A stretch of 64,000 bases of DNA from Escherichia coli (GTDB lineage Bacteria > Pseudomonadota > Gammaproteobacteria > Enterobacterales > Enterobacteriaceae): assembly GCF_044324875.1 (NCBI RefSeq), contig NZ_CP172185.1, one strand, 5' to 3'. Position 1 is the stretch's first letter. Each line of letters starts with the position of its first letter. Below, piece by piece: positions 34,953 to 41,204 of the stretch. The notes beneath the pieces are model-generated. The model was not told where the DNA came from, ran no database searches, and was given only the letters and a program-made list of their open reading frames with translations. Both the position numbers and the translations under genes were made by a program.

Positions 34953-35279
34953 ATGAGTAAGAAACTGATTGCTTTATGTGCCTGCCCGATGGGTCTGGCT
35001 CACACCTTTATGGCAGCCCAGGCGCTGGAAGAAGCGGCGGTAGAAGCAGGCTATGAAGTAAAAATTGAAACCCAGGGTGCGGACGGTATCCAGAACCGTC
35101 TGACGGCGCAGGATATCGCCGAAGCAACCATCATCATCCACTCCGTGGCGGTTACCCCGGAAGATAACGAACGTTTCGAATCACGCGACGTTTATGAAAT
35201 CACTTTGCAGGACGCAATTAAAAACGCTGCGGGCATCATCAAAGAAATCGAAGAGATGATTGCCGCTGAACAACAGTAA
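34953..35279 (+). CDS. fryB: PTS fructose-like EIIB component FryB
   Basis: 108 aa from MSKKLIALCACPMGLAHTFMAAQ (EIIB-Fru-type Cys site). The ORF-track start at 34902 is an extension. Confidence 0.9.
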   Translation: MSKKLIALCACPMGLAHTFMAAQALEEAAVEAGYEVKIETQGADGIQNRLTAQDIAEATIIIHSVAVTPEDNERFESRDVYEITLQDAIKNAAGIIKEIEEMIAAEQQ

Positions 35280-35300
35280 TATTCGACAGGGATAATTGTT

Positions 35301-36548
35301 ATGGCCATTAAAAAACGCAGTGCAACCGTTGTGCCTGGCGCATCCGGTGCGGCAGCGGCAATTAAGAATCCGCAGGCCTCTAAAACCAGCTTCTGGGGTG
35401 AACTCCCGCAGCATGTGATGTCAGGGATTTCACGCATGGTGCCGACCTTAATTATGGGCGGTGTGATCCTCGCTTTCAGCCAGCTGATTGCTTATAGCTG
35501 GCTTAAAATTCCTGCTGATATCGGCATCATGGATGCTCTTAATAGCGGGAAATTCTCCGGTTTCGACCTCTCCTTACTTAAATTTGCCTGGCTGTCGCAG
35601 TCCTTCGGCGGTGTGTTGTTTGGTTTTGCCATTCCGATGTTTGCTGCTTTTGTGGCAAACTCTATCGGTGGCAAACTGGCGTTCCCGGCGGGTTTTATCG
35701 GCGGCTTGATGTCTACCCAGCCGACGCAACTGCTGAACTTCGATCCCAGCACTATGCAATGGGCGACCTCTTCGCCGGTGCCGTCCACCTTCATTGGTGC
35801 GCTGATAATATCTATCGTTGCGGGTTACCTCGTGAAATGGATGAACCAGAAAATCCAGTTACCGGATTTCCTGTTAGCGTTCAAAACCACATTTTTGCTA
35901 CCGATTCTTTCCGCCATTTTTGTCATGCTGGCGATGTACTACGTCATCACCCCCTTTGGTGGCTGGATCAACGGCGGTATCCGTACCGTGCTGACCGCTG
36001 CAGGTGAGAAGGGCGCGCTGATGTACGCGATGGGGATCGCCGCGGCGACAGCAATCGACCTTGGTGGCCCGATCAACAAAGCCGCAGGTTTCGTTGCCTT
36101 CAGCTTTACCACGGACCACGTATTACCGGTCACCGCACGTTCTATCGCTATCGTTATTCCGCCGATTGGTCTGGGTCTGGCGACCATTATTGACCGTCGT
36201 TTAACCGGCAAACGCCTGTTCAACGCTCAGCTTTATCCGCAGGGTAAAACCGCCATGTTCCTTGCCTTTATGGGGATCAGTGAAGGTGCGATTCCGTTTG
36301 CGCTGGAAAGCCCCATCACCGCCATTCCGTCCTATATGGTTGGCGCGATTGTCGGCTCAACCGCTGCAGTCTGGCTGGGCGCAGTGCAATGGTTCCCGGA
36401 ATCCGCTATCTGGGCATGGCCACTGGTCACTAACCTCGGCGTCTACATGGCGGGGATCGCGCTGGGGGCAGTCATTACTGCGCTGATGGTGGTGTTCCTG
36501 CGTCTGATGATGTTCCGTAAAGGCAAATTGTTAATCGATAGCCTGTAA
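35301..36548 (+). CDS. fryC: PTS fructose-like EIIC component FryC
   Basis: 415-aa polytopic membrane protein, EIIC-Fru family. Confidence 0.9.
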
Positions 36549-36562
36549 GAAGGACAATCCTG

Positions 36563-37648: not shown

Positions 37649-38685
37649 TGGATTTATCGCTATTAAAAGCGTTGAGCGAGGCAGATGCGATCGCCTCCTC
37701 GGAACAGGAAGTACGGCAGATCCTGCTAGAAGAAGCGGATCGCCTGCAAAAAGAAGTGCGATTTGACGGCCTGGGATCGGTGCTGATCCGCCTCAATGAA
37801 TCGACAGGTCCGAAGGTGATGATCTGTGCGCATATGGATGAAGTGGGATTTATGGTGCGCAGCATCTCCCGCGAAGGGGCTATTGACGTGCTGCCGGTTG
37901 GCAATGTGCGCATGGCTGCCCGCCAGCTGCAGCCGGTGCGCATCACCACCCGTGAAGAGTGCAAAATTCCCGGCCTGCTTGACGGCGACCGGCAGGGGAA
38001 TGATGTTAGCGCCATGCGCGTGGACATTGGCGCGCGCTCGTATGACGAAGTGATGCAGGCGGGAATTCGTCCAGGCGATCGCGTCACCTTCGATACCACT
38101 TTTCAGGTTCTACCCCACCAGCGAGTGATGGGGAAAGCCTTTGATGACCGCCTCGGTTGCTACCTGCTGGTGACGTTACTACGTGAGCTGCACGACGCCG
38201 AACTGCCTGCGGAGGTGTGGCTGGTGGCCAGCTCCAGCGAAGAGGTGGGATTACGCGGCGGGCAAACCGCTACCCGTGCGGTTTCACCGGACGTTGCGAT
38301 TGTGCTGGATACCGCCTGCTGGGCGAAAAACTTTGATTATGGCGCGGCTAACCATCGCCAGATTGGTAACGGCCCGATGCTGGTATTAAGCGACAAGTCG
38401 CTGATTGCGCCGCCAAAACTTACCGCGTGGATTGAAACCGTGGCGGCAGAAATTGGCGTGCCGTTACAGGCAGATATGTTCAGCAACGGCGGCACGGACG
38501 GTGGAGCGGTGCATTTAACTGACACCGGCGTACCCACGGTGGTGATGGGGCCAGCGACGCGCCACGGACATTGTGCGGCATCGATTGCCGATTGCCGCGA
38601 CATTTTGCAGATGCAGCAACTTTTATCTGCCCTTATTCAACGTCTTACCCGTGAGACGGTTGTTCAACTGACGGATTTCAGATGA
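37648..38685 (+). CDS. ypdE: M42-family aminopeptidase YpdE
   Basis: 345 aa; start overlaps the ypdF stop (TAATG). Confidence 0.9.
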
Positions 38686-38709
38686 TCTCCTGATTAACCC
38701 GGAGCGGTT

Positions 38710-41204
38710 ATGTTAACGATTCAATTTCTCTGTCCTTTGCCTAACGGTATTCATGCTCGTCCGGCGTGGGAACTTAAAGAACAGTGCAGCCAGTGGCAAA
38801 GCGAAATCACTTTTATTAACCATCGCCAGAACGCAAAGGCCGATGCGAAAAGTTCGCTGGCGCTGATTGGTACCGGCACTTTATTTAATGACAGTTGCAG
38901 CCTGAACATTAGCGGCAGCGATGAAGAGCAGGCGCGGCGCGTGCTGGAAGAGTACATCCAGGTGCGCTTTATCGACAGCGACAGCGTCCAGCCAACGCAG
39001 GCAGAACTGACGGCGCATCCGCTGCCGCGTTCATTAAGCCGTCTGAATCCTGATTTACTGTACGGCAATGTGCTGGCAAGCGGCGTCGGCGTGGGTACGC
39101 TGACCCTGTTACAGAGCAACAGCCTCGATAGTTATCGGGTAATCCCTGCCAGTGCGCAAGACTCCACCCGGCTGGAGCACAGCCTGGCAACGCTTGCCGA
39201 GCAACTGAACCAGCAACTGCGCGAGCGTGACGGCGAAAGCAAAACTATCCTCAGCGCCCATTTGTCGCTGATCCAGGATGATGTATTTGCAGGCAATATC
39301 CGTCACCTGATGGCAGAACAGCATCAGGGGCTGGGGGCGGCGATCATCAGCAATATGGAGCAGGTTTGCGCCAAACTATCTGCTTCTGCCAGCGATTATC
39401 TGCGCGAGCGGGTCAGCGACATTCGCGATATCAGCGAACAGTTGCTGCATATCACCTGGCCGGAACTGAAGCCGCGCAACAATCTGGTGCTGGAAAAACC
39501 GACTATTCTGGTGGCCGAGGATTTAACCCCAAGCCAGTTTTTGAGCCTCGATTTAAAAAATCTTGCGGGCATGATTCTGGAGAAAACCGGGCGCACCTCG
39601 CATACCCTGATTCTGGCCCGTGCCTCGGCGATCCCGGTTCTTAGCGGCCTGCCGCTGGATGCGATCGCGCGCTATGCCGGGCAACCGGCGGTGCTTGACG
39701 CCCAGTGCGGTGTGCTGGCGATTAACCCGAATGACGCGGTGAGCGGTTATTATCAGGTCGCGCAGACGCTGGCGGATAAACGCCAAAAACAACAGGCGCA
39801 GGCTGCCGCGCAGCTGGCCTATTCCCGTGATAACAAGCGTATTGATATTGCGGCGAATATCGGCACCGCTCTGGAAGCGCCAGGCGCGTTTGCCAACGGC
39901 GCGGAAGGCGTTGGGCTGTTTCGTACCGAAATGCTCTATATGGATCGCGACAGCGCGCCGGACGAGCAGGAGCAATTTGAAGCCTACCAGCAGGTGCTAC
40001 TGGCAGCGGGCGACAAGCCGATTATCTTCCGCACAATGGACATCGGCGGCGATAAAAGCATTCCTTATCTGAATATTCCCCAGGAAGAGAACCCGTTCCT
40101 CGGCTATCGTGCGGTACGAATTTACCCGGAATTTGCTGGCCTGTTCCGCACTCAACTGCGGGCCATTTTGCGCGCCGCCAGTTTCGGCAACGCCCAGTTG
40201 ATGATCCCAATGGTTCACAGCCTCGATCAGATCTTATGGGTGAAGGGCGAGATCCAAAAAGCATCGTTGAGCTTAAGCGCGATGGCCTGCGTCATGCAGA
40301 GACGATTACGCTGGGTATCATGGTGGAAGTGCCGTCGGTGTGCTACATCATCGATCACTTCTGCGATGAGGTAGATTTCTTCAGTATCGGTTCTAACGAT
40401 ATGACCCAGTATCTGTATGCGGTCGATCGTAATAACCCGCGCGTATCGCCGCTGTATAACCCGATTACGCCATCGTTCCTGCGCATGTTGCAGCAGATTA
40501 TTACCACTGCGCATCAGCGGGGTAAATGGGTAGGCATTTGCGGTGAACTGGGCGGTGAAAGCCGTTATCTGCCGCTACTGCTTGGGCTGGGCCTGGACGA
40601 GTTAAGTATGAGTAGCCCGCGCATTCCGGCGGTGAAAAGCCAGCTTCGTCAACTGGATAGCGAGGCGTGTCGGGAACTGGCGCGTCAGGCATGTGAATGC
40701 CGCAGCGCGCAGGAAATTGAAGCGTTACTCACCGCCTTTACGCCGGAAGAAGACGTTCGCCCACTGCTGGCGCTGGAGAATATCTTTGTTGATCAGTCCT
40801 TTAGCAATAAAGAGCAGGCGATCCAGTTCCTGTGCGGTAACCTCGGCGTTAACGGGCGCACTGAACATCCGTTCGAGCTGGAAGAGGATGTCTGGCAGCG
40901 GGAAGAGATTGTTACCACAGGCGTTGGTTTTGGCGTAGCGATCCCGCACACCAAATCTCAGTGGATCCGTCATTCCAGTATCAGCATTGCCCGGCTAGTG
41001 AAACCGGTTGACTGGCAGTCAGAAATGGGCGAAGTCGAACTGGTGATCATGCTGACACTGGGCGCTAACGAAGGGATGAATCATGTGAAAGTCTTCTCGC
41101 AGCTGGCGCGTAAACTGGTGAATAAAAACTTCCGCCAGTCGCTGTTCGCCGCGCAAGATGCGCAAAGCATCCTGACGCTGCTGGAAACGGAATTAACCTT
41201 CTGA
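38710..41204 (+). pseudogene. fryA: PTS multiphosphoryl transfer protein FryA (HPr-EI-EIIA fusion), interrupted by a 1-nt frameshift
   Basis: Two overlapping ORFs (38710..40374 and 40236..41204) in different frames together span 2495 nt, one short of 3n. The N-part ends ...MIPMVHSLDQILWVKGEIQK and the second frame continues SIVELKRDGLRHAETITLGIMVEVP, colinear with PtsI ([45 protein letters not shown]). The shift lies in the A5 run at 40256-40260. Confidence 0.65.

Follow-up and report, generated by a model that had tools for sequence, protein, structure and literature searches.

The fry operon of Escherichia coli: conserved linkage of an orphan phosphotransferase system with two aminopeptidases, and a recent clonal frameshift in fryA

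Introduction

Escherichia coli K-12 still holds several orphan phosphotransferase system (PTS) operons without a known substrate, namely fry, frv, frw, and sgc. The fry operon, fryB-fryC-ypdF-ypdE-fryA, raises a question of its own: why is a PTS permease encoded together with two aminopeptidases? Here, this question was addressed in a 64,000-nt stretch of E. coli DNA (NCBI RefSeq assembly GCF_044324875.1, contig NZ_CP172185.1; hereafter the window, at its full length), in which the operon occupies positions 34953-41204. Sequence comparison indicates that the PTS-peptidase pairing is functional rather than accidental, because it recurs in distant gut bacteria. The reading favored here, to which a probability of about 0.5 is assigned, is that fry is a self-contained PTS co-transcribed with two cytoplasmic metallo-aminopeptidases and acts on conjugates of a sugar or amino sugar with an amino acid or short peptide as a substrate class. 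Any particular compound would be far less probable as the substrate than the class.

The locus, the gene names, the in vitro peptidase activities, and both protein structures (1YLO and 5CNX) are already known. The present analysis adds the linkage of the operon to ypdC rather than to ypdAB, a conserved operator/promoter block, a PTS-M42-M24(-PatB) module found across phyla, and the dating of a frameshift in fryA. The substrate had been described as undefined in the original prediction made for this DNA, and the literature agrees: no function was assigned to FryA or FryABC in 2017 (PMC5364489), YpdC was uncharacterised in 2021 (PMC8464067) and is counted among the uncharacterised AraC factors (PMC4797297), and no paper assigning a fry substrate was found in the literature searched, where queries by gene name alone brought up mainly unrelated text. 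As a core operon of E. coli, fry is shared by nearly all strains, and in one study colonisation of the bladder was aided by ypdE.

Conservation of the fry gene set across species and phyla

The genes of the operon were found as open reading frames (ORFs) exactly at the positions predicted for them, and every domain claimed for their products was confirmed by Pfam. They are, in order:

34953-35279, plus strand: fryB, PTS enzyme IIB (EIIB), 108 aa, intact (ORF map; PF02302 at 71 bits)
35301-36548, plus strand: fryC, PTS enzyme IIC (EIIC), probably fructose family, 415 aa, intact (PF02378 at 51.8 bits)
36563-37648, plus strand: ypdF, M24B Xaa-Pro-type aminopeptidase, 361 aa, intact (PF01321 and PF00557)
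37648-38685, plus strand: ypdE, M42 aminopeptidase, 345 aa, intact (PF05343 at 285 bits, cutoff 23)
38710-41204, plus strand: fryA, multiphosphoryl transfer protein joining HPr, enzyme I (EI), and enzyme IIA (EIIA), 831 aa when intact and a pseudogene here
38710-40374 and 40236-41204, plus strand: the two ORFs into which fryA is split (ORF map)

EIIB and EIIC had been said to bracket the peptidases. The actual order is EIIB-EIIC-M24-M42-(HPr-EI-EIIA), with the peptidase genes between fryC and fryA.

For the cross-species comparison, one genome per GTDB species was scanned using YpdE as the query, and tblastn was then run with all proteins of the window. The five-gene order was fixed in about 30 Enterobacterales species, being invariant in Escherichia, Citrobacter, Salmonella arizonae and diarizonae, Kluyvera, Pseudocitrobacter, Enterobacter, Pluralibacter, Superficieibacter, Buttiauxella, Hafnia, and several metagenome-assembled genomes (MAGs). 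The M42 homologs fell into two groups by their identity to YpdE and by their neighbors:

M42 with at least 40% identity to YpdE: M24 on the same strand within 5 kb in 46/46, PTS EIIC in 43/43 evaluable, second tandem M42 in 0/46
M42 with less than 40% identity to YpdE: M24 on the same strand within 5 kb in 0/32, PTS EIIC in 4/32, second tandem M42 in 29/32

The EIIC beside the YpdE-clade M42 was of the Fru type in 30 Enterobacterales and of the Lac type in 13 Firmicutes. Since the linkage to M24 and EIIC is complete although the PTS family differs, the coupling is not due to chance. The view that PTS and peptidases are meaningfully coupled is thus strengthened, with M24 and PTS genes beside every YpdE-clade M42 in two phyla and with non-homologous PTS families. 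Such coupling is, nevertheless, less unusual than had been claimed, as all three M42 paralogs of E. coli sit in PTS operons.

The nearest relatives of YpdE outside the Enterobacterales (41-45% identity) were found in Clostridioides difficile, Romboutsia, Terrisporobacter, Clostridium thermobutyricum, Lactococcus, Latilactobacillus, and Massilimicrobiota. In all 13 of the 13 Firmicute loci, the operon consisted of a PRD/EIIA regulator, M42, EIIA, EIIB, EIIC, M24, and a PatB C-S lyase. The C. difficile M42 passed the YpdE equivalog model (563 bits, cutoff 412), and the identity of YpdE to this protein (42%) exceeded that to FrvX (34%) and SgcX (31%). The C. difficile EIIC belongs to the lactose/cellobiose family (TIGR00410), unlike FryC, which is probably of the fructose family. 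In the Peptostreptococcaceae (C. difficile, Terrisporobacter, and Romboutsia), the cluster is preceded by genes for an AgaS-family SIS protein and for a GatY-like tagatose-bisphosphate aldolase (positions 5691-7759 of locus L040), and a GatZ/KbaZ-like gene was located downstream in C. thermobutyricum (15608-16951 of locus L050). These neighbors are a weak hint that the sugar moiety may be of the galactosamine or tagatose type.

A PatB-family lyase gene (357 bits, cutoff 340) also follows fryA directly in one Enterobacterales MAG (Enterobacterales bacterium bin_27; positions 3222-14798 of locus L035). The order there is Ldh_2 dehydrogenase, M20 hydantoinase/carbamoylase-type amidohydrolase, a ypdC-like AraC gene on the same strand, fryB, fryC, ypdF, ypdE, fryA, and PatB. 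When PatB, M20, and Ldh_2 neighbors were sought in the other Enterobacterales loci, this locus alone had them. The alaC gene next to the E. coli operon was considered as a counterpart of the aminotransferase position in Firmicutes and was rejected as a coincidence: its product shows 20-22% identity, is not of the PatB type by that comparison, and its adjacency is not conserved.

Two other arrangements of more distant M42 genes were observed. In Romboutsia and Clostridium spp. (loci L053-L056, about 5400-11060), Lac-family EIIA, EIIB, and EIIC genes are followed by two tandem M42 genes (30-37% identity to YpdE) with no M24 gene. In Ruminococcus spp. (loci L058-L083), M42 homologs of ~30% identity occur in conserved tandem pairs, and no PTS or M24 neighbor was detected there.

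Predicted functions of the PTS proteins and peptidases

FryB carries its phosphorylatable Cys in the motif CACPMGLAHT. FryC passed the Pfam PTS_EIIC model and matched the Fru-family EIIC model TIGR01427, its best-scoring family, at 157.1 bits (cutoff 157.55); by these scores it appears to be a divergent member of the fructose family. In FryA, Pfam identified PTS-HPr, PEP-utilisers_N, PEP-utilizers, PEP-utilizers_C, and PTS_EIIA_2. The intact protein has all phosphorylation motifs, GIHARPA, GRTSHT, GICGELGG, and AIPHT, of which GICGELGG and AIPHT are encoded beyond the frameshift in the window. The motifs of FryB and FryA are taken by us to be active sites from what is known of EI, HPr, and EIIA-Mtl/Fru. 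Intact fryA alleles give the operon a complete private phosphorelay.

YpdF contains Creatinase_N and Peptidase_M24 domains, matched the NCBIfam equivalog NF007310 at 807 bits (cutoff 393), and is near-identical to the PDB entry 5CNX, "Aminopeptidase YpdF" (E = 1.7e-233). YpdE matched NF007421 at 681 bits (cutoff 412), its metal-binding and catalytic motifs HMDE, FDDR, SEEVG, LDT, and RHGH are conserved, and the structure of an ortholog is available (PDB 1YLO). Peptidases are the only hydrolases of both the E. coli and the Firmicute operon type, and neither has a glycoside hydrolase. In the 2005 work of Zheng, YpdE and YpdF are said to cleave ordinary peptides in vitro. The activity of YpdE is cited as having been characterised in that work (Zheng 2005, as cited in PMC3511314). 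A ypdE deletion mutant of strain UTI89 was outcompeted in the mouse bladder, with a competitive index of 0.297 (PMC8767336), which shows the operon to be important in at least one niche of the host.

Transcription unit and fryB promoter

The successive genes of the operon are separated by 21, 14, -1 (ATGA, the ypdE start lying over the ypdF stop), and 24 nt in the window. Over 30-33 Enterobacterales species, the median gaps were 16 (fryC-ypdF), -1 (ypdF-ypdE), and 25 nt. The conserved translational coupling of ypdF and ypdE argues against independent transcription of the peptidase genes. Moreover, fryBC-ypdF-ypdE-fryA has been listed as one unit showing mild Cpx-dependent induction (PMC2731931).

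A scan with consensus promoter and terminator models gave no signal above chance inside the operon and no strong sigma-70 promoter, and it missed the fryB promoter, which emerged solely from a cross-genus alignment in which the 260 nt preceding fryB were compared for 15 taxa. Across these taxa, which included Hafnia and others with different flanking genes, only a block of ~85 nt was alignable (34833-34916, plus strand). The features upstream of fryB are as follows:

34748..34771, plus strand: terminator-like hairpin of glk, with a 10-bp stem, 5 GC pairs, and a T-rich tail (glk stop at 34734)
34833-34842, plus strand: GTCACACTTC, resembling half a CRP site
34862 and 34882, plus strand: direct repeat TCCAGTAAA / TCTGGTAAC, at a 20-nt pitch
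34911-34916, plus strand: -10-like CATAAT, invariant, 20 nt past the repeats, with no recognisable -35 and followed by a ribosome-binding site

The hairpin marks the border between glk and the fry transcription unit. The 29-nt pattern of the block was unique within the window (0 expected by chance). From the alignment, the block 34833-34916 is predicted to be an activator-dependent promoter, in which an AraC-type tandem operator abuts the -35 position. The repeats TCCAGTAAA and TCTGGTAAC would then be the candidate operator of YpdC, and the TCACA element a candidate CRP site. Another possible CRP site, TGTG-N6-CACA at ~34812, was discarded for its wrong spacing and its lack of conservation outside Escherichia.

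At the other end of the operon, the stop codons of fryA (TGA) and ypdC (TAA, minus strand) lie 2 nt apart (41202-41209) with no terminator-like structure between them, and transcripts from either side must therefore enter the opposite gene. A tight fryA/ypdC junction (about 6-14 nt by tblastn ends) was kept in most genera.

Linkage of the operon to ypdC and ypdAB

After the operon, three regulatory genes lie on the opposite strand, convergent with fryA:

41207-42064, minus strand: ypdC, AraC-family regulator, 285 aa (PF12833 and PF00165)
42077-42811, minus strand: ypdB, LytTR response regulator, 244 aa (Response_reg and LytTR)
42826-44523, minus strand: ypdA, LytS-type pyruvate-responsive histidine kinase, 565 aa (5TM-5TMR_LYT, GAF, His_kinase, and HATPase_c)

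The adjacency of ypdABC to the operon is as originally described, whereas its treatment as a single attached regulatory unit is misleading. In 27 of the 30 Enterobacterales species that could be evaluated, a convergent ypdC lay no more than 1.5 kb from fryA; among the remaining species, one had a ypdC-like gene upstream and one had ypdC 6.8 kb away. This linkage persisted in taxa without glk, alaC, and ypdAB. By comparison, ypdA and ypdB adjoined the operon in 12 of the 30 species (Escherichia, most Citrobacter, and Pseudocitrobacter), and two Salmonella loci had ypdC without ypdAB. The alaC gene was not a conserved neighbor either.

The only published target of YpdB is yhjX, which is recognised via the direct repeat GGCATTTCAT (PMC4847170). 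Allowing up to one mismatch, this motif was absent from 34735-34952, and its 8 occurrences across the window correspond to chance (7.7 expected). Thus, neither of the two features looked for in a YpdA/YpdB regulon member, a YpdB repeat at the promoter and conserved linkage, was found for fry. Sequence features of an AraC-type activator system were present, namely a C-terminal double helix-turn-helix (PF12833, PF00165), conserved adjacency, and direct repeats by a promoter with a weak -35. The difference in linkage and the absence of the YpdB motif at the fryB promoter are the reasons for splitting ypdABC and assigning ypdC to fry. We propose that ypdC encodes the dedicated regulator of the fry operon, and that ypdB and ypdA are probably neighbors and not part of the module.

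An Rfam scan of 34.7-44.9 kb detected no RNA family. Elsewhere in the window, Rfam identified four tRNAs and an RtT element (23062-23614, minus strand) and two tRNAs (26313-26500, plus strand).

Frameshift in fryA

Compared with the intact 2496-nt fryA of strain Z1323HEC0462 (CP148331), the gene in the window has lost one G between 40262 and 40263. The alignment contained 0 mismatches and 1 gap, that is, 0 substitutions in 2495 nt apart from the deletion, which bears out the frameshift noted in the original prediction. The product of the first ORF is 554 aa long, FryA-like through residue 518 and followed by 36 out-of-frame residues. It retains His15 of HPr (GIHARPA) and the EI His (GRTSHT), and lacks the second half of the phosphoenolpyruvate (PEP)-binding domain including the EI Cys (GICGELGG), as well as the whole EIIA domain with its His (AIPHT). 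No intact 831-aa FryA is encoded in the window. With truncation after residue 518, the dedicated phosphorelay would be dead in this strain, and transport would occur only if other PTS proteins cross-phosphorylate FryB. The frameshift matters only for this clone, whose private phosphorelay is broken. According to the annotation of matching genomes, ptsI, encoding the general EI, is located in the first 25 kb, so that it shares the 64-kb window with its broken paralog.

The exact truncated protein was found on 164 contigs, which indicates that the frameshift is real and fixed in a clone. Window DNA also showed 100% identity to assembly GCA_044694465.1 across 17 kb and, across 7.7 kb, to an independent assembly made from the Sequence Read Archive run SRR31121989. 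A sequencing error was considered and rejected on the grounds of the 164 contigs and the independent assembly. The lesion is a very recent clonal event, since fryA is otherwise free of substitutions relative to the intact allele; for the same reason of recency, the absence of further decay is uninformative.

The suggestion that the module may be decaying is therefore only partly supported. The fryA lesion is genuine, but it is single and very recent, and the other four genes are full length. Compared with other E. coli alleles, fryB, fryC, ypdF, and ypdE showed 9-34 synonymous and 0-8 non-synonymous differences, and their ratios of non-synonymous to synonymous substitution rates (dN/dS) of 0.02-0.11 (0.018-0.064 for fryC) indicate purifying selection. 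Adaptive loss is an equally good reading of the lesion, because a spontaneous 48-bp in-frame deletion in fryA (the Mt56 allele) was selected in prolonged LB culture and improved fitness (PMC5364489). In that case, losing the private phosphorelay would have been advantageous in the niche of the clone, and the fixation of the frameshift allele on 164 contigs and the intactness of the remaining operon genes would fit. Against this, a single clonal expansion cannot tell hitch-hiking from selection, the Mt56 allele is in frame and may represent a change of function, and the defect of the ypdE mutant in the mouse bladder shows the operon to be useful in at least one host niche; adaptive loss in place of neutral decay is possible but rather unlikely. 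It is far less probable that near-full-length FryA is still made by -1 ribosomal or transcriptional slippage at CAAAAAG, leaving the module attenuated and not dead. The deletion does lie directly 3' of CAA-AAA-G (40248-40266), slippage by -1 on A-AAA would bring back the reading frame at the cost of the single change A519S, and the downstream frame carries 0 substitutions. Nonetheless, the run has only five A's and forms no canonical X-XXY-YYZ heptamer, the recency of the mutation fully accounts for the unchanged downstream frame, and the intact allele has an identical A run, so that nothing suggests selection for recoding.

Allelic ancestry of the operon

The region 34953-41204 represents a core operon of E. 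coli. Gene names are identical in the RefSeq annotation of the corresponding E. coli region, and 5415 of 5426 complete E. coli genomes contain the segment, at 95-99% identity. The closest of these genomes showed 98.2% DNA identity at 100% coverage, with matching annotated genes and flanks (glk upstream, alaC downstream); both flanks are ordinary syntenic E. coli. This ceiling of 98.2% results from the operon being a recombination mosaic, in which 34953-38685 and 38686-41204 are of different allele ancestry. Apart from the deletion, fryA has the allele of strains Z1323HEC0462 and KE55; ypdF and ypdE match a different allele family (L002) completely or to within one base; and fryB with the 5' part of fryC is ~3% diverged from both families. 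For the segment from fryB to ypdE, the best match among the 5426 genomes was 97.7%. A Shigella origin of the window, considered in view of the best identity of no more than 98.2%, was rejected on account of the syntenic E. coli flanks, the labelling of the proteins as E. coli, and the mosaic structure, which accounts for the low identity.

The window carries a full-length YpdE. In many Escherichia and Shigella genomes, YpdE has an in-frame deletion of 27 residues (70-96, with a VR(S/I)I repeat on either side), as exemplified by proteins P0024, P0026, P0027, and P0089 from E. coli, Shigella sonnei, and E. albertii, and by positions 10001-10953 of locus L039. Two such variants occurred on 157 and 77 contigs. 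The deletion looks like a recurrent or widespread allelic erosion of ypdE.

Proposed function of the fry operon

From gene content and linkage, we infer the following substrate class, reaction order, and role of YpdC. FryC and FryB would take up and phosphorylate a sugar or amino sugar to which an amino acid or short peptide is attached. YpdE, a broad-specificity M42 enzyme, and YpdF, a Xaa-Pro-type M24B enzyme, would then cut the peptide amide bonds and so replace the usual phospho-glycosidase. In the relatives that have it, the PatB-type β-lyase, a pyridoxal phosphate enzyme, could cleave a C-beta-S or C-beta-O link or dispose of released Cys. The product of the convergent ypdC gene, not the pyruvate sensor YpdA/YpdB, would activate the fryB promoter with its weak -35 via the conserved direct repeats. 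More tentatively, fry may be the proteobacterial form of a hitherto unrecognised catabolic module spanning phyla, consisting of a PTS permease, a YpdE-type M42, an M24B, and often PatB, in which a conjugate is dismantled by peptidases and not by glycosidases and YpdC acts as the activator. Candidate substrates of such a module are an S- or O-glycosyl Cys/Ser peptide, an aminoacyl-aminosugar, and a glycated peptide from host or diet.

Several observations weigh against this proposal. None of the evidence in the present analysis names a substrate. The E. coli operon has neither a PatB lyase nor a downstream sugar-phosphate enzyme, and the FryC score lies just under the cutoff of the Fru-family model. 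The Firmicute M24 scored below the YpdF equivalog cutoff (244 bits versus 393), and the M24 partners in the two phyla may be independent recruits and not orthologs. Given their in vitro action on ordinary peptides, YpdE and YpdF could simply be peptidases. In addition, the putative binding of YpdC to the fryB promoter is a prediction from sequence, and YpdC gave no peaks under laboratory conditions in chromatin immunoprecipitation with exonuclease treatment (ChIP-exo; PMC8464067).

Some of these points would suit another account, in which the PTS and the peptidases are functionally unrelated and YpdE and YpdF are housekeeping or starvation peptidases sharing a transcript with an orphan fructose-like PTS. 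E. coli is rich in redundant peptidases, laboratory expression of the operon is poor, as seen from the lack of a strong sigma-70 promoter and the inactivity of YpdC in ChIP-exo, and the in-frame fryA deletion raised fitness in LB, which is rich in peptides. What makes this account improbable is the M42-M24-PTS linkage, unbroken in two phyla despite the swap of a Fru for a Lac PTS, together with the conserved ypdF/ypdE overlap and fryC-ypdF gap of ~16 nt; the distant M42 genes, by contrast, lacked M24 throughout and rarely had an EIIC beside them. Still less probable is a regulatory PTS with no sugar substrate, in which phosphorylation of FryA and FryB would control the peptidases or carbon-nitrogen signalling in the manner of PtsP-Npr-PtsN. 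Paralogous regulatory branches such as PTS-Ntr are established, FryA provides an EI-HPr-EIIA chain of its own, insulated from that of the general PTS, and the neighbors YpdAB and alaC handle the PEP/pyruvate node. However, these neighbors are not conserved, a full membrane EIIC is retained under strong purifying selection, and the Firmicute version has a standard Lac-type EIIABC with a PRD-EIIA activator typical of substrate-inducible catabolic operons. The conjugate-degrading PTS operon is preferred as the reading of fry. The survival of the linkage through the change of PTS family, the C-S lyase joining the module, and ypdC as a conserved partner with a recognisable operator turn it into testable hypotheses.

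Comparison with known systems

The fry locus of the window resembles the E. coli K-12 locus, fryBC-ypdFE-fryA (b2387-b2383) with ypdABC (b2380-b2382), in genes, order, spacing, and flanks, and differs from it in the lineage-specific 1-bp deletion in fryA and the recombinant combination of fryB-ypdE alleles. Two other E. coli operons, frvABXR (frvA-frvB-frvX-frvR) and sgcXBCQAER (sgcX-sgcB-sgcC-sgcQ-sgcA-sgcE-sgcR), likewise have an orphan PTS co-transcribed with an M42 homolog annotated as "aminopeptidase/endoglucanase". Unlike fry, they lack both an M24 partner and a private EI/HPr, and FrvX and SgcX fall outside the YpdE equivalog model. E. coli malXY, known from the literature, is another unexplained pairing of a PTS with a β-lyase, comprising the EIICB protein MalX and the PatB-family C-S lyase MalY; it differs from fry in having no peptidases and in its separate location outside the window.

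In the pathways for fructosamines and glycated amino acids (frl of E. coli, and gfr and fra of Salmonella), a conjugate is imported and phosphorylated, and the link between sugar and amino acid is cleaved. They employ SIS-type deglycases, kinases, or asparaginase, and none is known to use M42 or M24 peptidases. The fry operon has no deglycase gene, and its resemblance to these pathways is one of concept only.

The closest counterpart in another phylum is the 8-kb Firmicute cluster of PRD regulator, M42, Lac-family EIIA/EIIB/EIIC, (RDD), M24, and MalY/PatB, which shares with fry a YpdE-equivalog M42, an M24B with Creatinase_N, and a PTS permease. It differs in its lactose/cellobiose-family PTS, its use of the general EI/HPr, a PRD-EIIA activator in place of AraC, the constant presence of PatB, and the adjoining AgaS-like and GatY/GatZ-like genes in some Clostridia. 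This cluster has been drawn around malY of Latilactobacillus sakei LT-13, whose MalY is both a racemase and a C-S lyase, and its role was left open (PMC5845896). If the proposal made here is true, a conjugate-degrading module would give a function to a long-standing orphan PTS operon of E. coli and to the Firmicute malY cluster together.

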